In this document: piece after piece, positions 8,907 through 14,900 of the stretch
Layout: each line of letters opens with the position of its first letter
Position numbering within the stretch: the stretch's first letter is position 1
Source of the DNA: Synechococcus sp.
Lineage (GTDB): Bacteria > Cyanobacteriota > Cyanobacteriia > PCC-6307 > Cyanobiaceae
Direction: 5' to 3'
Assembly (NCBI GenBank): GCA_047284725.1
Contig: JBJBEO010000001.1
Coordinates: 1,144,203-1,208,202, forward strand
Length of the DNA: 64,000 nucleotides
Notes under the pieces: generated by a model
What the model was told of the DNA's origin: nothing
The model's input: the letters and a program-made list of their open reading frames with translations, nothing else
The model's database searches: none
Position numbers and translations under genes: made by a program

Positions 8907-9332
8907 ATGCCTGAATCGTCTTGCTTGAGCTGGCCTCAGTTGTTCAAAAGGGCAGCAACGAAACCGTTTGACTATCGGTCAACCTCATCAAGGGCTGAGT
9001 ACTGGGTCTTTGTGATTTCCATGGCAGTCGTGCAGGCCATTGTGTCCATGATTGTCACCATCGGTACGGCGTTCTATGTCTATGCCTCCACGGCCCCTGA
9101 AAGCATGGGTTCCGAATCGTCTGGGCTGATTTCGGTGGGAGTCCTTTTGTCGGTTGTAAGTGTGCTTAATTTTCTGATAAGCATCTATATCATTCTTGCT
9201 ACATCTGCGCTTGCCAACCGACGACTGAGAGACCTCCAAATGAATACCTGGTTGACGCCCTTGTTCCTGATTCCTTGCCTGAATTTTATCCTTGCGCTTG
9301 TTTACTTCACGAGGAAAAGGGCTTTGGCATAA
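8907..9332 (+). CDS. DUF805 family membrane protein
   Basis: FDYRSTSSRAEYW and ALANRRLRDL motifs; 3 TM segments. Confidence 0.85.
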   Translation: MPESSCLSWPQLFKRAATKPFDYRSTSSRAEYWVFVISMAVVQAIVSMIVTIGTAFYVYASTAPESMGSESSGLISVGVLLSVVSVLNFLISIYIILATSALANRRLRDLQMNTWLTPLFLIPCLNFILALVYFTRKRALA

Positions 9333-9444
9333 CCGCTTGAATCGGCATCTCGGACTGCTGGAGTGCTGATTGAGCGACATATTCAGAAGCCTGGCACGAA
9401 TGGACGACTTTGAATTCAGGTTCTGCGCGATCGTCGTGGGTCGC

Positions 9445-9501
9445 TTACAGTTGTCATGAGCGAAGCGAGTGGAAGCTATTCGGTTGATCCAATTGTTCTG
9501 C
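9445..9501 (-). repeat. Degenerate/truncated attC (last cassette)
   Basis: Minus strand, 8 nt after the stop at 9509: GCAGAAC-AATTGGATCAACCG...CACTCGCTTCGCTCATG. This looks like an R''/L'' arm with the CGCTTCGCT loop common in attC sites; no 3' GTT arm found. Confidence 0.5.
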
Positions 9502-9508
9502 TACACCA

Positions 9509-9970
9509 TTAGTTGGAATGACCTTGATTGCCGTACCAACCTCCTGTGTCACCCCCAATCCAAACTTTATGTTTGAATTGGGGGAAATATTCATGACAAA
9601 GACTTAGGATGTTATCGTCTTTAGTTATGTTGTCGCCCTTTTTGTAACCTTTTGGGTAAAAGATTCTATCAATATATTTGCCTTGTACTCTTATCTGGCC
9701 GATGACGTAAATTCCATTGCCTACCCCGTATACGGAGCCTTCTTTTTGCTTTGTGTATACTGCTACATATCCACCGTCAGCTTTTGTGTAATGGTTAATT
9801 GTAGGCAATATTCGTCTTTCGAGGCCTGGTAAGGGATAATTGATTGCTATATTTTCCTTTACGTAAACTTTAAAATCACGTGGCAAAAGATTGCTTGTCG
9901 AGATTCGAGGATTACCAGTGCAGCCTAGTGTAGTGAGGCTAAGTGCAATGAAGAGTGTCAATTTTTTCAT
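9509..9970 (-). CDS. Cassette-encoded putative lipoprotein, unknown function
   Basis: AT-rich; ATG 9970 MKKLTLFIALSLTTLG-C lipobox; C-terminal WIGGDTGGWYG. Confidence 0.8.
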   Translation of the reverse strand: MKKLTLFIALSLTTLGCTGNPRISTSNLLPRDFKVYVKENIAINYPLPGLERRILPTINHYTKADGGYVAVYTKQKEGSVYGVGNGIYVIGQIRVQGKYIDRIFYPKGYKKGDNITKDDNILSLCHEYFPQFKHKVWIGGDTGGWYGNQGHSN

Positions 9971-9979
9971 ATTTTTTCT

Positions 9980-10084
9980 TTCTATTTTGTTGAAAGCTGC
10001 CCCGCAGTGGCAGGCAGAGAGTTTGTAGTGGCGAAGGAAGAAGATTATTGTTGGTGGTCTGCCTACTTGAAGGACTTGTTCGAT
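9980..10084 (-). repeat. Degenerate attC
   Basis: R''-like ATCGAAC-AAGTCCTTCAAG 18 nt after the MazG-like stop; internal stem AGGCAGA/TCTGCCT. GTTCGATGC matches this cassette's 5' GTTAGAAGC at 7/9. The R' GTT is eroded. Confidence 0.45.
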
Positions 10085-10101
10085 GCCCATAAAGGCTAGG
10101 G

Positions 10102-10419
10102 CTAGATCTCGCCATCGACTAAGAAGAGGCGCCTCTGAAACCCGCCTCGCGTTTCGGCCTTTTGCCTTCGCACGACCTCAAGCTCCTCCAAGGTATGGCC
10201 CTTGGCCACGCAGAGAGCGCGGATGACTTCAAGGGTGTCTGCCAACTCCTGAATGTCGCCACTACTCTCGGAAACCTCGGTGACCTCTTCGTGGAGTTTT
10301 GCAATGAGTTGTGCCACGTATTCGTCGTCGCGCAACTCCCGGACGGTGCATGCCTTTCCGGCAGCTTCCATGACCTCAGGGATTCGGTCGCGGACAAGCT
10401 TGTTGTAGGTCTTTCGCAT
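10102..10419 (-). CDS. MazG-like all-alpha NTP pyrophosphohydrolase (COG4997 / PRA-PH-like)
   Basis: YNKLVRDRIPE, KLHEEVTE, ELADTLEV and R.QKAETRGGF motifs. Confidence 0.9.
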   Translation of the reverse strand: MRKTYNKLVRDRIPEVMEAAGKACTVRELRDDEYVAQLIAKLHEEVTEVSESSGDIQELADTLEVIRALCVAKGHTLEELEVVRRQKAETRGGFQRRLFLVDGEI

Positions 10420-10427
10420 CTAGAGGC

Positions 10428-11462
10428 TTACAGCAGGGAGTTGGCGACAAATGAGTTCGCTGGTCGCCAGCGACTTGGTATCGCGTTGATAGCGAGCTGG
10501 TCGCATTGCTGAAGGAAGCTCGCGCGTTTCTGCTTGGTGGCACCGGTCTGCGCAATCAGCGTCTCGCGGAGTGGGTGGTGGCTGTCTATGAGCCAGTTGT
10601 TCCTCACGTTCAGGCGCTCAAGGTACTCGATGTGTGGGATGAGGTCGAATTTTCCACCTGGGCCACGGTTGCACTCTGTGCAGGCCAGAACGAGGTTCCA
10701 TACACCGTCGATATTCAAGCCACAAAACGGCTCGGCATGGTCGAGTCGCTTGGGGAAAAAGTGGTCGACATCGGCGTCCAACGTCTCACTACGGTCGATG
10801 GTGATTGGTTGATGGCAATAGAAACATGTGCCTTTCTGATACCCGTTTAAAGCATCGCGCACTCCGGCTATTGACACCCGACGAGTTGCGTCAGTCGCGA
10901 TGAAAAGCTCGCCAATCTCAATGTCTGTTCTTACTTCCAACACGCGCGAAGGCACTCCAAGGTTCCAGGCCGTCTCAACTAGACGCCATCGTGCTTCCGC
11001 CTCTAGCGCCAAGCTGTTGGCCTGCGTGTCCGCCATGAGTCGTCGAAACTCTTCAGTGAGCCGGATTCCTTTGGCTGTCGCACGCTCGTCGTGGAAGAAC
11101 CGAATTGGTACATCTGAAGAGCCGACGATGTGAAATGCATCGATGACATTGTTGAAGCCACGCCTGACGGTCTCCATGCGTAGTTGATCGGCTGAGAGTT
11201 CGCCGCGGTTGAAGTTGCGACAGGCGTCGAGAAACACGCTTGAGCGCGAGGTCGCTTGTCGATCCGCGGAATTGAGGTGTCGGGCGATCTCCCGAGCGAA
11301 AGGTACCGCGAGATCATCAAGGCGGACGAGGTCATCGGTTGCTGGGGCGAGCTCAACCAACGAGCGAGCGAGGGCAAACTTGTATGACGCGACGTTTCGA
11401 CCAAAAAGGACGATCGCCCGCCAGCAGGATGCGGGATTCGGCTTGCTCTCAATGAATGTCGT
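10428..11462 (-). CDS. HNH endonuclease; start codon reads ACG
   Basis: CFYC...DVDHFFP...WNLVLACTECNRGPGGKF HNH core. The frame stays open upstream of the track's start (WRAIVLFGRNVASYKFALA) back to ACG at 11462, with no in-frame ATG/GTG/TTG before the TAA at 11496-11498. Confidence 0.88.
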   Translation of the reverse strand, partial: TTFIESKPNPASCWRAIVLFGRNVASYKFALARSLVELAPATDDLVRLDDLAVPFAREIARHLNSADRQATSRSSVFLDACRNFNRGELSADQLRMETVRRGFNNVIDAFHIVGSSDVPIRFFHDERATAKGIRLTEEFRRLMADTQANSLALEAEARWRLVETAWNLGVPSRVLEVRTDIEIGELFIATDATRRVSIAGVRDALNGYQKGTCFYCHQPITIDRSETLDADVDHFFPKRLDHAEPFCGLNIDGVWNLVLACTECNRGPGGKFDLIPHIEYLERLNVRNNWLIDSHHPLRETLIAQTGATKQKRASFLQQCDQLAINAIPSRWRPANSFVANSLL

Positions 11463-11515
11463 GGTCGAGGCGCTTCGGATGCACCCCGATTCTACTTAAG
11501 CCGCTTTCTCGATGC

Positions 11516-11596
11516 TTCTAACGCCCAAGCTGTGCGGCGCAAACGAAGCGCAGCGTAGTTTGCGTCCGAACGAGCGGAACGAGCGCCTTGTTAGCT
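11516..11596 (-). repeat. attC site (81 bp)
   Basis: Minus strand AGCTAAC-AAGGCGCTCG...GCAAACTACGCTGCGCTTCGTTTGCG...CAGCTTGGGC-GTTAGAA; imperfect palindrome; the upstream gene's TAA lies inside R''. Confidence 0.93.
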
Positions 11597-12438
11597 ATTT
11601 TTGAATACATGATTTCGATGGTGCTCCATATAACCCATTAATCTGCTTGGCACCTTCCTCAATTTGAGATTGCCAGCCAATCCAAGTTTTCAATGTCATC
11701 TTGTGATAGTTGAGGGGAAATCATTGCTATACCGGCTTCATCGAATGTGATTAGTCCCAAATCAAACAAGTGATCTAATGTGGGTTGCAATAACAGCCCA
11801 TTCATTGGGTCAAGACGCTCTTGATTGGATGAATCTCTCCACGGTTTGATATGCGAGGCTCGAACCACAGAGAGATTGCCTAACCCAGTAACTGAGCAAC
11901 TTCCCCATACTTCAACTACACCATCCCTGAACAAGCCCTGCCCGATGCGACTCTTTACGATTGATTTTTTTTCAGTTTGATCTAGCGATTTGAATTCATC
12001 CTTGTGCGCTTCGATATCGTCAAACATGTCTGGACGTTGACTTTTGTTCCCGACCGAAAACACAAATTGACTGGGTGACGAGCTAAGGCGGCGATGTTCT
12101 TTTAGATGAATCTGTCCGCAATACACAAATGGCGTATGATGAATGTCTCGATAAAAGAGGTGTATTTCATCATTCACAGACTCTGCATTGATCACTCTGT
12201 TGTCTGATGAATGCTTTTCTTCGCCTTCTCAGTGAAGCAGCTCGCCGTCTAAATAATCATTGTATTGAGTTAGTGCTTCTTGTTTTTGTTTTGTGACAAA
12301 CAGGATGATGTATTTAGTTCCTGATGGCGTTACAACGCCCCTGGAAATAGCCTGAAACCCTTTGTAGCCCCAAATATCAGCCAGGGATGGCCGCTCATAT
12401 TCTTGCCCAATTTTCAGTTTTTCAAGGCTGACTGGCAC
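11591..12438 (-). pseudogene. DUF3427/SRA(PUA)-like domain + HNH endonuclease (putative modification-dependent restriction), inactivated
   Basis: ORFs 12229-12438 and 11659-12195 share a frame and are separated by TGA in LLH*EGE (W expected). C-terminal RIGQGLFR...CSVTG...ASHIKPW...NGLLL...DHLFDLG HNH. A 1-nt frameshift near 11685 hides the tail ...LRKVPSRLMGYMEHHRNHVFKNS*, which ends in the attC R'' box. Confidence 0.85.
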
Positions 12439-12454
12439 GGTATTTCCTTTTGAT

Positions 12455-12612
12455 GGCTAACAGTGTTTCGGCGGACAGTAGAAGTTGCTAATAGTTGATT
12501 TTTTGCTGCATAAGCTGGCAATGGCAGCTTTCCCCCAAGATCAACACCCCAGCTCTAGCAACAATTTTAGCGGATTCCACTCCTCGCATGGATTGTTATG
12601 CGGACCGCAAAA
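12455..12612 (-). repeat. Second attI-like module with attC-like internal symmetry
   Basis: 147 bp from GGCTAAC (12455) to GTTATGC (12601). Both ends align with 13215-13372. Nested stems GTTGCTA/TAGCAAC, GTTGAT/ATCAAC, AAGCTG/CAGCTT. Confidence 0.75.
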
Positions 12613-12707
12613 GCTCTTCAACGCTTGGTTGCTTAGCTGAAGGCCATAATCCTTATGGAGACCATTTCAAGTCATTCATATGGGGCGATTGTTGGTCGCT
12701 TAATGGT

Positions 12708-12809
12708 GCCTAGCGCCCCGTTTAGCGGCTTTTTATAGTTGGCTAAAATAACGAACGCAATGAGGGAAGCCAACTATTAAAAGTCCCAGCCTGCAACGCC
12801 TTGTTATAT
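12708..12809 (-). repeat. attC site (102 bp) with mutated R' core (GCTAGGC)
   Basis: Minus strand ATATAAC-AAGGCGTTGCAG...TTTTAATAGTTGGCT...AGCCAACTATAAAA...AAACGGGGC-GCTAGGC; the gene's TAA lies inside R''. Confidence 0.9.
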
Positions 12810-13208
12810 GTGTTGAACACCATTCCATCCATTTCGGTTTATGATTTTAAACTTTGAATCGTCTTTGCTGTAGCAACTAGACTTTAATGATGAAAAGTCT
12901 AGGTTGTTTCGCGGAACCTCAAAGTATTCAAAAACCTTGTTGCCATCGGTAGCAACCAATAAAGTAATACCATCTAGTGTGTGAATTTTACTTTTTGTCT
13001 CGATGTCGAACTTAAAGCCTATTAGATCTTCCGCGCTTTGGTTGTTTGAATAAGGTGTAATTATGCAAACTTGTTTCCAGTTCCCTCTTATCTCTATTGA
13101 TAAGTCGACAAACTCTTTTGAATGGTCAAAAGTTCGTTCTGGAGCTTCGCCCACCTTGGAGCAAGAAATCAATAATATCACTAAAATAACAGTCAGACAC
13201 TTATTCAT
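12804..13208 (-). CDS. First cassette: putative lipoprotein, unknown function
   Basis: ATG 13208 just after the core site GTTATGT; MNKCLTVILVILLIS-C lipobox; WKQVCIITPY motif; very AT-rich. Confidence 0.82.
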   Translation of the reverse strand: MNKCLTVILVILLISCSKVGEAPERTFDHSKEFVDLSIEIRGNWKQVCIITPYSNNQSAEDLIGFKFDIETKSKIHTLDGITLLVATDGNKVFEYFEVPRNNLDFSSLKSSCYSKDDSKFKIINRNGWNGVQHI

Positions 13209-13214
13209 AAACAC

Positions 13215-13372
13215 ACATAACAGTCTTACGGCGGTCCGCACAAGCTGCCGCCAGGCAGCTTATGCGGCAAAAAAATCCGTTTGAATCACCTCTCAGGAAC
13301 CAATTACCTACTTTTAGCAAGACCACCGCACCCCATCCAAGCCCGGCTTGGTTTGTTACCAGGACCGCAAAA
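13215..13372 (-). promoter_or_regulatory. attI region, downstream of the intI 3' end
   Basis: Core GTTATGT at 13221-13215 matches the first cassette's R'' (ATATAAC) at 6/7; hairpin CCGCATAAGCTGCC/GGCAGCTTGTGCGG; lies between the intI stop and the first cassette. Confidence 0.78.
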
Positions 13373-13383
13373 CATCCTCGGGT

Positions 13384-14358
13384 TCAGAGCAAGTCCGCGG
13401 GACTGCGGACGACTGATGGACCGCGATTCAGCACATGGGTGTAGATCATCGTGGTCTTCACATCGCTGTGACCCAGCAGCTCTTGAATCATGCGGATGTC
13501 GGCTCCCTGCTCCAGCAGGTGTGTGGCAAACGAATGGCGGAAGGTGTGGCAGGTGGCTGGCTTGCTGATCCCCGCCGCCTGCACGGCAGCACGCACGGCC
13601 CGCTGTACCAGGCTCGGATCCAGGTGGTGTCTCCCCTCCAGTCTCTGCCGGGGACTCCGCCAACGGCGGCATTAGGGAAACAGCCATTGCCAGGCCCATT
13701 CCCTCGCCGCATTTCGGTATTTCTTCTCCAGGGCATGGGGGAGCTCCACCGCACCCCAACCCGCTGCCAGATCGGCCTGGTGCACACTCCTCACGTGCTG
13801 CAGGTGCCGTTGCAAGGGCTCCACCAGGCTCGAGGGAAGCACGGTGCGCCGGTCCTTGCCTCCTTTGCCGCAGCGCACCGTGATGCAGCACTTCTCCAGG
13901 TCCACATCCTTGATCCGCAGCCTTAGCGCCTCCATCAGCCTCAGTGCACTTCCATAGAGAAGCTGGGCCACCAGGGCCTCGGCTCCGCCCAGATGGCCAA
14001 GCACGGCCTTTACTTCATCCACCGTCATCACCACGGGAAGGCGCGCCCGTCTGCGGGCTCGGATCACACCCTCCAGGTTCCCCACATCACCACCCAGCAC
14101 CGTGCGATAGAGAAACAGCAAGGCCGCCAGCGCTTGGTTCTGCGTGGAGGCACTCACTCTCTCCTCTGTCGCCAGATGACTCAGGAACGCATTGATCTCT
14201 GCCTCCCCCATCTCACGCGGATGACGCATCCGTTGAAAGCGCAGGAATCTCCGCAGCCAGTGCTCATAGCTCGACACTGTCCGGCGTGCGTAGTGCCTCA
14301 CCTGCAGCTCTTCCCGGTAGCGCTGGATCAGGCCCGGCGGCTGGTTCGGGTTGGCCAT
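13384..14358 (-). pseudogene. intI: Integron integrase with an in-frame nonsense codon
   Basis: HYARRT, VSASTQNQALAALLFLYR, LLYGSALRLME, GKGGKDRRT, the IntI-specific patch AGWGAVELPHALEKKYRNAAREWAWQWLFP, then TAA (13672-13674), then in-frame [12 protein letters not shown]...[12 protein letters not shown]...[16 protein letters not shown]. Confidence 0.96.
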
Positions 14359-14499: not shown

Positions 14500-14900
14500 T
14501 TGCCGTCGAACATTGCCATTCCCATTCACGCTCGGCTGGGGTATTGGCGACCTAACGCATCGGCAATCAGGACCTGCCCCCAACCGGCCTTTCGATCACG
14601 CTGGTGAAACTTGCGAACATCACTTAGATGGCGTGCCAGTGCTGGGAACATGCTTTGTGGCAAGAGCGTCAGTCGATCCTTCCCCCCTTTGCCATCGCGC
14701 ACGCAGAGCTCTCGCCGCTCGATGCTGATGTCTTTGACGCGCAGGCTTAAGGCCTCCATCAAGCGCAACGCACTGCCGTTCAGCAATCCCACCACCAGCC
14801 TTGGTGAACCCTGCAGTGTCGCGTTCGAGCCCGGATGACGGAATCCAACACCAAGGGTTTGCCGAGCAGTTCGCGATCGAGAAACAGCACTGCAACTGGA
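14500..14900 (-). pseudogene. intI: Second, divergent integron integrase remnant
   Basis: Three frame-shifted pieces: AVLFLDRELLGKPLVLDSVIRARTR / LLNGSALRLMEALSLRVKD...GKGGKDRLTLLP...AGWGQVLIADALGRQYP / REWEWQ. The N-terminus and catalytic C-terminus are missing. Confidence 0.9.

Follow-up and report, generated by a model that had tools for sequence, protein, structure and literature searches.

A two-gene nuclease and pyrophosphohydrolase cassette, apparently a minority member of a widespread module that links a type IV-like nuclease to one nucleotide enzyme

Why should a nuclease gene travel with the gene for a small nucleotide enzyme? The question is raised by a two-gene integron cassette in Synechococcus sp. 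(GCA_047284725.1, contig JBJBEO010000001.1), which encodes a predicted winged-helix/HNH nuclease followed by an all-alpha nucleoside triphosphate pyrophosphohydrolase (NTP-PPase) of the MazG superfamily. The window, the whole stretch of DNA that was analysed, is 64,000 nt long; coordinates are positions in it, and the cassette genes lie on its minus strand. An earlier reading, made from the sequence alone, proposed the pair as a candidate anti-phage system. The cassette is a minority member of a widespread and apparently undescribed module: a type IV-like nuclease with one linked nucleotide enzyme. Type IV nucleases are generally regarded as able to do without a partner for protection.

Homologues of the nuclease are numerous (5,116 among 7,995 scored candidates; 2,252 representatives at 50% clustering) and patchily distributed (6 of 401 genomes of its phylum, the window genome included). 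Gene neighbourhoods were compared at 167 loci. Of these, 80 are the top-ranked among 167 genome matches, 80 the top-ranked among at least 492 metagenome matches, and seven are cyanobacterial matches, which include the window and a broken gene counted as two pieces. These loci, with alignment A4, supplied the partner profiles. The loci were ranked by similarity to the query, near-copies included, and the counts are not independent. Exactly one partner is present at 147 loci: a S-adenosylmethionine (SAM) methyltransferase at 93, a HIT hydrolase at 47, and an NTP-PPase at seven. No locus has two types. Twenty have none, of which 13 have less than 700 bp on one side; where at least 700 bp is available on both sides, a partner is present in 100 of 107. 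The idea that nuclease plus NTP-PPase is the conserved unit of the family is contradicted by these numbers.

Partner genes nearly all abut or overlap the nuclease gene. HIT genes are mostly upstream and methyltransferase genes mostly downstream, so mutual exclusion is not competition for one position; methyltransferase genes also are kept in convergent and upstream positions. The nuclease tree has 164 rows, after removal of four split or partial rows and addition of one Bacillus row, and was run in quick mode with SH-aLRT as the only support; on it the partner labels are clustered and need 26 changes. Strong branches force at least seven label changes for the methyltransferase, eight for HIT, and only one for the NTP-PPase (three on the best tree). 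Partners have switched repeatedly along the nuclease tree.

The partner methyltransferases match only small-molecule-type models (Methyltransf_11/25, and weakly TehB and TPMT); one of three also gives a weak N6_N4_Mtase match (E 4.8e-4). DNA methyltransferases carry N/DPPY or PC motifs, and neither type was seen when the methyltransferase consensus was read by eye. There are partial matches to PADLOC mad2 (E ~1e-10 to 1e-20). Two loci (L045:2611-4428 and L046:4058-5797, both minus strand) encode, divergent to the nuclease, a fusion of about 580 aa that joins a methyltransferase, a winged helix and an HNH domain and has a similar YK-x-AL motif; this fusion has no full-length PADLOC match. The Synechococcus genome itself encodes, elsewhere (G000:C1:1757963-1758349), a HIT protein of the nuclease-partner subtype (48% identity).

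Three phyla have the nuclease and NTP-PPase pair, each in its own gene order: picocyanobacteria; Bacillus and Lysinibacillus plasmids; and Rhodococcus together with locus L079. The nuclease was found in 28 plasmid records, and the survey of partners covered all but five. The NTP-PPase lies just upstream in at least 13 of 18 Bacillus records and in the Lysinibacillus record, by comparison of coordinates with 40 of 56 NTP-PPase rows; the other five Bacillus records lie outside the listed rows. Annotation confirms the pair on a B. thuringiensis plasmid (21-bp gap) and in Lysinibacillus, where the nuclease is in pieces. On the Rhodococcus plasmid and in L079 the genes are divergent, and Hymenobacter and Persicobacter plasmid records have a HIT partner. 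The nuclease-linked NTP-PPases of the three phyla are 33-45% identical, and 41-44% identical to an unlinked cyanobacterial homologue, L228. Such identities, together with the three gene orders, suggest separate recruitment of the NTP-PPase in three phyla.

The cassette in the window consists of the following features.

11516..11596, minus strand: upstream attC, part of the preceding cassette (R'' 11596-11590, R' 11522-11516), recognised by core boxes and identity break
Between 11522 and 11521, minus strand: expected crossover at the upstream attC
11463..11521, minus strand: cassette 5' leader, with an in-frame stop at 11498-11496
10428..11462, minus strand: nuclease gene, 344 aa from a probable non-canonical ACG start; predicted winged helix plus HNH
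10965..11441, minus strand: predicted winged-helix N-terminal domain (about residues 8-166), whose nearest solved relatives are sulfur-binding domains (SBDs) and Cdc6/ORC winged helices
10593..10868, minus strand: HNH domain (about residues 199-290; PF13395, E 9.4e-5)
10430-10428, minus strand: nuclease stop codon TAA, then an 8-bp gap (10427-10420)
10102..10419, minus strand: all-alpha NTP-PPase (MazG superfamily), 105 aa, with E45, E48, E58 and D61 intact
9989..10084, minus strand: the cassette's own degenerate attC (R''-like 10084-10078, R'-like 9995-9989), with both core boxes mutated

The sequence bears out several earlier statements: two genes 8 bp apart, no attC between them, both attC positions, and the motifs quoted for each protein. 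The cassette is bounded by the upstream R' crossover and by its own downstream attC. Five further copies, 86-91% identical, are present in Synechococcus sp. CCY 9618 (L001), Cyanobium sp. BSA11S (L002) and three metagenome contigs (L088, L089 and L090). All five keep both genes and the same spacing between different flanks. Identity among the six copies begins at the upstream R' box; at the 3' end, three copies that were aligned share identity only as far as the downstream R''. In L001, L088, L089 and L090 the site that corresponds to the degenerate attC is intact, and L002 has a different, shorter attC. The sequence-only reading was right about a two-gene cassette, and the cassette moves as one mobile unit.

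The bottom strands of the upstream and the degenerate attC fold no better than shuffles (z -0.04 and 0.21), so support for the upstream attC comes from core boxes and the identity break, not from folding energy. The downstream attC sites of L001 and L002 do fold better (z -2.31 and -3.85).

The six copies share one oddity. At the start position of the family none has ATG and all have ACG (11462-11460 or equivalent), two codons before a near-invariant Phe, where enterobacterial and Vibrio homologues have Met. Of 15 nuclease pairs, 14 have a ratio of non-synonymous to synonymous substitution rates (dN/dS) of 0.14-0.19, and the near-identical L089/L090 pair has 0.53; NTP-PPase values range over 0.10-0.58. 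Ahead of its first TTG the nuclease has 34 codons, which are conserved at least as well as the remainder. Changes private to the window are 19 synonymous and 10 non-synonymous in the nuclease, six and four in the NTP-PPase. These comparisons indicate purifying selection on the nuclease. Six copies that lack ATG show it, which makes translation from a non-canonical codon, probably ACG, more likely than loss of an ATG; ATC and ATT codons in frame may be alternatives. A pseudogene that lost its ATG is unlikely given the dN/dS values, the conserved codons before TTG and the private changes, although recent silencing in this genome may have occurred. The sequence-only reading had called for a restored ATG, but the missing codon is no lesion of this genome.

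A start codon supplied by the upstream att site also was considered and rejected: the leader stop (11498-11496) is shared by two of the six copies (window and L088), L002 has a stop just before the leader, and in this genome a start upstream of the leader stop is impossible. The upstream att site does supply an in-frame ATG in L088, L089 and L090, and in L089 and L090 the reading frame continues unbroken across the leader to the nuclease; in those two, array position might alter nuclease translation. For integron expression, a lesser point of interest is that a cassette can be kept under selection with no canonical start codon.

The nuclease combines an HNH domain with an amino-terminal one. 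Only HNH_4 (PF13395, E 9.4e-5) is detected by Pfam, NCBIfam matches the HNH core only, and a PDB sequence search returned only Cas9 HNH (E 0.13 or worse). The structure model (predicted local distance difference test, pLDDT, 90.6) gives the HNH domain a Cas9-HNH-like fold. Residues C213, C216, H234, N256, C261, C264 and N265 are invariant in 120 of 120 homologues, and D233 in 119; the catalytic and zinc residues thus are intact, as expected of the HNH nuclease proposed earlier.

Modelled in isolation (pLDDT 94.5), the N-terminal domain is predicted to be a winged helix. SBD-Hga (8H0L) ranks first among structural matches (Z 8.0; root-mean-square deviation, rmsd, 3.0; 114 aligned residues; 14% identity), and SBD entries make up five of the top eight rows. 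Other scores are: Cdc6, Z 7.5 (rmsd 3.7, 108 aligned); ORC2, 6.8; SBD-Sco, 6.7; and SBD-Spr, 6.2. Identity to the SBDs is 11-16%, versus 5-7% for the top Cdc6 and ORC2 rows. An hhalign comparison with the methyltransferase-winged-helix-HNH fusion gave E 0.004 (probability 8%). Residues G21, N23, K28, Q69 and V106 are invariant in 113 of 113 aligned rows, and the surface shows as much conservation as one would expect of a binding pocket.

In known structures, the SBD pocket comprises H116, R117, Y164, P165 and A168 in ScoMcrA (PMC6224610) and H25, K26, L75, P76 and H79 in Hga (PMC10602919). (Statements that rest on papers cited here refer to those parts of each paper that were consulted.) In the proposed register, whose first motif comes from a non-significant hhalign and whose second (N/Y105-V106) was placed by eye, the corresponding residues would be Y27 (110 of 113 rows), K28 (113), N105 (68, with Tyr in 20), V106 (113) and A109 (93). 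Since the pocket His and the critical Pro differ, the nuclease is not classed as SBD-HNH. In L240:6715-9349, a nuclease-family gene without a partner and an SBD-HNH gene (NF045808 E 2e-36, below cut-off) are about 650 bp apart.

Members of the all-alpha NTP-PPase superfamily carry two acidic metal-binding motifs, ExxE and ExxD. The residues E45, E48, E58 and D61 are invariant in 53 of 53 homologues, and also are intact in those from Bacillus, Lysinibacillus, Rhodococcus, L079 and L228. Neither Pfam nor NCBIfam gives a MazG match for the cassette protein. Its earlier assignment to this superfamily is upheld by the conserved acidic residues, by the source annotation of homologues ([quoted passage not shown]) and by a weak HisE match (1yxb, E 0.24). 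L228 has a PRA-PH match over cut-off, and COG4997 is presumably the applicable label.

Among 120 longer matches, 10 have the NTP-PPase fused to Nudix; other fusions are to GIY-YIG and PLD-helicase domains and, by eye only, to glycosylase-like domains. Fusion to the nuclease or to the methyltransferase was sought and found in none of the best 120 longer matches. In L222, L224 and L227 the fusion is to PLD-helicase, with a HIT gene directly upstream in L222 and L224. P0394, P0395, P0404, P0412 and about 70 similar proteins of 296-357 aa carry fused domains of 190-250 aa, which had no Pfam or PADLOC match in those tested; some resemble helix-hairpin-helix glycosylases by eye. In one cyanobacterial family (L237:6634-8088, L217, L218, L221 and L238) the NTP-PPase is fused to a domain that by eye is acyl-CoA-dehydrogenase-like.

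Does the nuclease keep defence company? Neighbours nearest to the nuclease at 38 genome loci were scored with PADLOC at E<=1e-15. Matches were found for 29 of 151 neighbours versus 3 of 42 control open reading frames (ORFs) from the window outside the integron (one-sided Fisher p 0.045), and 18 of the 38 loci have a matching neighbour. Enrichment in defence islands, as the sequence-only reading foresaw, thus is present, but only modestly. Type IV restriction enzymes, a retron, PDC-S14, S18, S36, S41 and S68 are among the convincing neighbours; type IV restriction models occur near the nuclease at four of the 38 loci (L004, L007, L062 and L076). In Enterobacteriaceae, the nuclease module often is 3' of an integrase gene. 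Viral contigs contributed five nuclease loci, four with a methyltransferase. Matches in phage genomes are limited to the HNH core, in two records, and E. coli genomes gave no blastn match to the Kluyvera nuclease-methyltransferase module.

The window cassette itself belongs to a low-GC island (about 9,000-13,400) beside the integron integrase gene, which is co-oriented with the array and upstream of the cassettes.

13384..14358, minus strand: integron integrase gene (TIGR02249, 290 bits for the first piece, cut-off 265), with an in-frame stop at 13674-13672

No intact integrase was found in this genome: the stop interrupts intI, and other intI-like matches are partial. One such partial fragment is just upstream of intI (about 14510-14900) and another lies at G000:C1:382351-382885. 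The nuclease and NTP-PPase ORFs have 56.4% and 57.2% GC, against 39.4%, 43.1% and 36.0% in three neighbouring cassette ORFs. The sequence-only reading was right about this difference, but the values are simply host-like (genome, 59.4%). The preceding cassette (11600-12457, minus strand) encodes a broken HNH_2 nuclease (PADLOC HNH PDLC04132, E 2.4e-25) with a weakly DUF3427-like N-terminal part, an in-frame stop (12231-12229) and a truncated end. Two related stretches, separated by 760 bp (12455-12620 and 13215-13380; repeats D2 and D5), lie at the boundaries of the first cassette, as does a 19-nt inverted pair (I1); these repeats may be attI/attC remnants.

What could one nuclease need from any one of three enzymes? 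The reading that we favour, tentatively and with somewhat less than even confidence, is by analogy with SauUSI-NUDIX: a modification-dependent restriction nuclease accompanied by an interchangeable enzyme that clears modified nucleotides. The winged-helix/HNH nuclease, translated at a low level from ACG, would recognise and cut foreign DNA that bears a chemical modification absent from the host. Degradation of this DNA would release modified nucleotides; once salvaged, these would enter host DNA and create self targets for the nuclease. A pyrophosphohydrolase, a HIT hydrolase or a methyltransferase each could remove the modified nucleotide, so one partner would suffice and two would never be kept. 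We infer modification dependence, an anti-phage or anti-plasmid role, and a cleaning role for the partner. In favour of the model we count the predicted winged helix joined to HNH, the slot filled by one partner at a time, the recurrence of the nuclease and NTP-PPase pair in three gene orders, the small-molecule character of the methyltransferase matches, the fusions of the NTP-PPase family to Nudix, GIY-YIG and PLD-helicase, and the type IV restriction models nearby.

Several observations count against this clearing model. The partner is not obligatory, since partner-less nucleases exist: the seven partner-less loci with adequate flanks are six filamentous-cyanobacterial loci (five genomes) and Pelagibacter L068, absence was rechecked in three 17-kb filamentous-cyanobacterial regions, and an Exiguobacterium plasmid carries the nuclease alone. 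The literature searched offers no precedent for a methyltransferase as a nucleotide cleaner, and the SauUSI authors proposed pyrophosphate breakdown, not cleaning (PMC3141236). The activity of nuclease family members is a prediction. Likeness to SBDs is middling, as the Z of 8.0 is tied with 7.5 for a Cdc6 winged helix; Foldseek against the PDB found nothing at E<=0.001; and two hhalign comparisons of the N-terminal domain with a cyanobacterial SBD homologue set (validated by an E 5.5e-19 match to SBD-Hga) were not significant, with probability below 1%. The defence enrichment was measured against a crude control, some matches are generic kinases or helicases, and 20 of 38 loci have no match. 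Many cyanobacterial NTP-PPase homologues lie among housekeeping genes (L230-L234 and L243). Finally, the integron is decaying here, with intI interrupted by a stop, the neighbouring cassette broken and the attC degenerate, and this copy of the cassette may therefore be silent.

A more specific form of the clearing model, which we consider rather improbable, is that the N-terminal domain is a remodelled SBD (Tyr-Lys and Val for His-Lys and Pro) that reads a sulfur-bearing DNA modification. The three partners then would destroy thiophosphate nucleotides: by HIT desulfuration; by pyrophosphohydrolysis of triphosphates; or, with a TehB/TPMT-like methyltransferase, by S-methylation. Counted in favour were the action of human HINT1 on dGMPS (PMC8775712), the weak TehB/TPMT matches and the NTP-PPase homologues in dnd clusters. 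The NTP-PPase was found in 33 of 251 cyanobacterial genomes, and nine of 29 non-window loci adjoin DNA phosphorothioation-associated protein 4. Eight of these nine are from one genus and the ninth from another genus of the same filamentous cyanobacterial family; coming from a single lineage, they give the sulfur link weak support. (The dnd-linked loci include L228:2050-19672, L229 and L242:8019-9681, and in the two viewed over a longer stretch the gene is inside the dnd cluster.)

Plain phosphorothioate is a doubtful target, because four of five cyanobacterial carriers of the nuclease have dndC, three of them with an intact nuclease frame. Anticorrelation with dndC was tried as a test of phosphorothioate and set aside: outside cyanobacteria it is uninformative (of 80 carriers 50 were searched and none has dndC over cut-off, against a background of three of 250 genomes, all in one class), and inside them the result is contrary. 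In the window's own genome dndC was not found (ssp was not searched). Known SBD-HNH genes lie near dnd in fewer than 3.6% of cases (PMC7461809), and cyanobacterial dnd clusters do contain SBD-HNH genes.

Might the partner instead work with the nuclease during infection? An NTP-PPase could deplete deoxynucleoside triphosphates (dNTPs) or bind an infection-derived nucleotide and so switch the nuclease on, much as in Kongming. We regard a co-effector or sensor of this kind as unlikely, and keep it open because other systems do use modified mononucleotides of degraded DNA as signals (10.64898/2026.01.15.699771). The 8-bp spacing couples the genes tightly. Kongming itself joins a HAM1-like NTP pyrophosphatase to an effector, and KomBC modules occur with varied nucleotide enzymes, including a SAM methyltransferase (10.1101/2024.12.20.629578); MazG-like domains have been proposed as dNTP-depleting effectors in rare PUA-HAD systems (10.64898/2026.01.15.699771). 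However, three unrelated folds, often encoded by convergent or divergent genes, are hard to fit to one allosteric interface; a methyltransferase is unlikely to be a dNTP-depleting enzyme; and in some lineages the nuclease is alone. The sequence-only reading had the partner either deplete dNTPs or remove modified ones. Because a methyltransferase cannot easily deplete dNTPs, the second alternative would fit better than the first.

Direct protection of the host, in an unusual restriction-modification or toxin-antitoxin arrangement, seems to us improbable. Here the methyltransferase would mark self DNA or the nuclease, and the hydrolases would remove an activating metabolite. The methyltransferase is the commonest partner (93 of 167) and has a relative fused to winged-helix and HNH domains, the partner methyltransferases partially match mad2, and six copies without a canonical start would hold a toxic nuclease low. 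Toutatis, too, joins two genes in an integron cassette, one of them for a putative methyltransferase (10.1101/2024.07.02.601686). Yet the methyltransferase consensus, by eye, has no DNA-methyltransferase motif; HIT and NTP-PPase cannot mark DNA and nonetheless replace the methyltransferase without co-occurring with it; and partner-less nucleases have intact frames.

Least probable of all is the absence of any functional coupling (a stand-alone nuclease with small defence-island hitchhikers, or a repair-type nuclease outside defence): such islands commonly contain HIT, Nudix and MazG-type genes, only 7 of 167 loci have the exact pair, linked NTP-PPases are no closer to each other across phyla than to unlinked L228, and only one origin of the NTP-PPase label is forced by strong branches, but 100 of 107 well-flanked loci have a partner, nearly always abutting or overlapping and never two, and the pair persists as one cassette in six copies and in at least 13 of 18 Bacillus plasmid records.

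The clearing model bears on an old puzzle, as the pyrophosphohydrolase linked to SauUSI was left unexplained in 2011 (PMC3141236), and MazG-type defence domains have been described as predicted, not validated (PMC13092281). Three unrelated partners, present one at a time, make the question testable: their shared substrate should be the nucleotide that the nuclease reads. If the model is true, it could bring to light a DNA modification not yet catalogued, or a new reader domain with which to map it. The sulfur version, if true, would amount to a widespread undescribed restriction family, would be the first case in which a type IV nuclease relies on nucleotide-pool cleaning for self-protection, and would give three orphan enzyme families a function together.

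How does the module compare with known systems? No named system was matched, as the sequence-only reading had suspected. PADLOC component models (Septu PtuB, PDC-M01, PDC-M62, Menshen NsnC and others) match the nuclease, and likewise two homologues, over HNH-core stretches only (best E 1e-6), and the best PADLOC match for the cassette NTP-PPase is an unrelated CARF model (E 0.011). The nuclease family and its partner exchange are undescribed in the full-text literature searched, a scope that most subscription papers and supplements lie outside. Iyer et al. (2013), on base-modification systems, may have noted these associations. The rows shown of DefensePredictor Table S6 list two single-gene HNH units, both negative, and no such pair; the consulted part of 10.1101/2024.07.02.601719 has no occurrence of HNH.

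Among two-gene cassettes, Toutatis of V. cholerae (TutA plus the putative methyltransferase TutB) likewise pairs a nuclease-related gene with a methyltransferase in an integron defence cassette. Unlike the 344-aa nuclease, TutA is a 64-aa Hpy99I-like fragment that lacks catalytic residues and works alone (10.1101/2024.07.02.601686). Kongming (KomA deaminase, KomB HAM1-like NTP pyrophosphatase, KomC SIR2) likewise places a protein of an NTP-pyrophosphatase family in a defence module built around a non-canonical nucleotide (10.1101/2024.12.20.629578). The cassette differs in that its NTP-PPase is all-alpha, not HAM1, its effector is another, and it encodes no deaminase, HAM1 or SIR2 domain.

Carriers of the nuclease include Citrobacter and Kluyvera, which presumably have Dam. 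The winged-helix fusion endonucleases that depend on N6-methyladenine (DpnI winged helix, HhiV4I; PMC11037411) share the join of a winged-helix reader to a nuclease and the type IV logic. The DpnI winged helix (4esj), however, scores only Z 4.0 (rmsd 3.0, 72 aligned, rank 42), against 8.0 for SBD-Hga.

Similar in architecture are the SBD-HNH phosphorothioate-dependent type IV endonucleases (ScoMcrA, 5ZMO; SprMcrA, 7CCD; EcoWI; and SBD-Hga, 8H0L), which likewise have an N-terminal winged-helix-type domain and a C-terminal HNH, and which supply the best structural neighbours of the N-terminal domain. The pocket lysine position (R117/K26) apparently is kept as the invariant K28, whereas in the proposed register His becomes Tyr (110 of 113) and the critical Pro becomes Val (113 of 113). 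In addition, the nuclease has no NF045808 match at E<=0.1, comes with a small-enzyme partner, and coexists with dndC in four of five cyanobacterial carriers.

SauUSI with its MutT/NUDIX neighbour (PMC3141236) provides the analogy for the clearing model: there a nucleotide pyrophosphohydrolase, whose role has gone untested, is genetically linked to a modification-dependent nuclease. SauUSI combines PLD nuclease and helicase domains and has a Nudix partner, whereas the Synechococcus nuclease is a 344-aa winged-helix/HNH protein that lacks those domains, and three-way exchange of partners is absent from the consulted account of SauUSI. Locus L224 offers a further likeness: there the cassette's own NTP-PPase family is fused to PLD-helicase.

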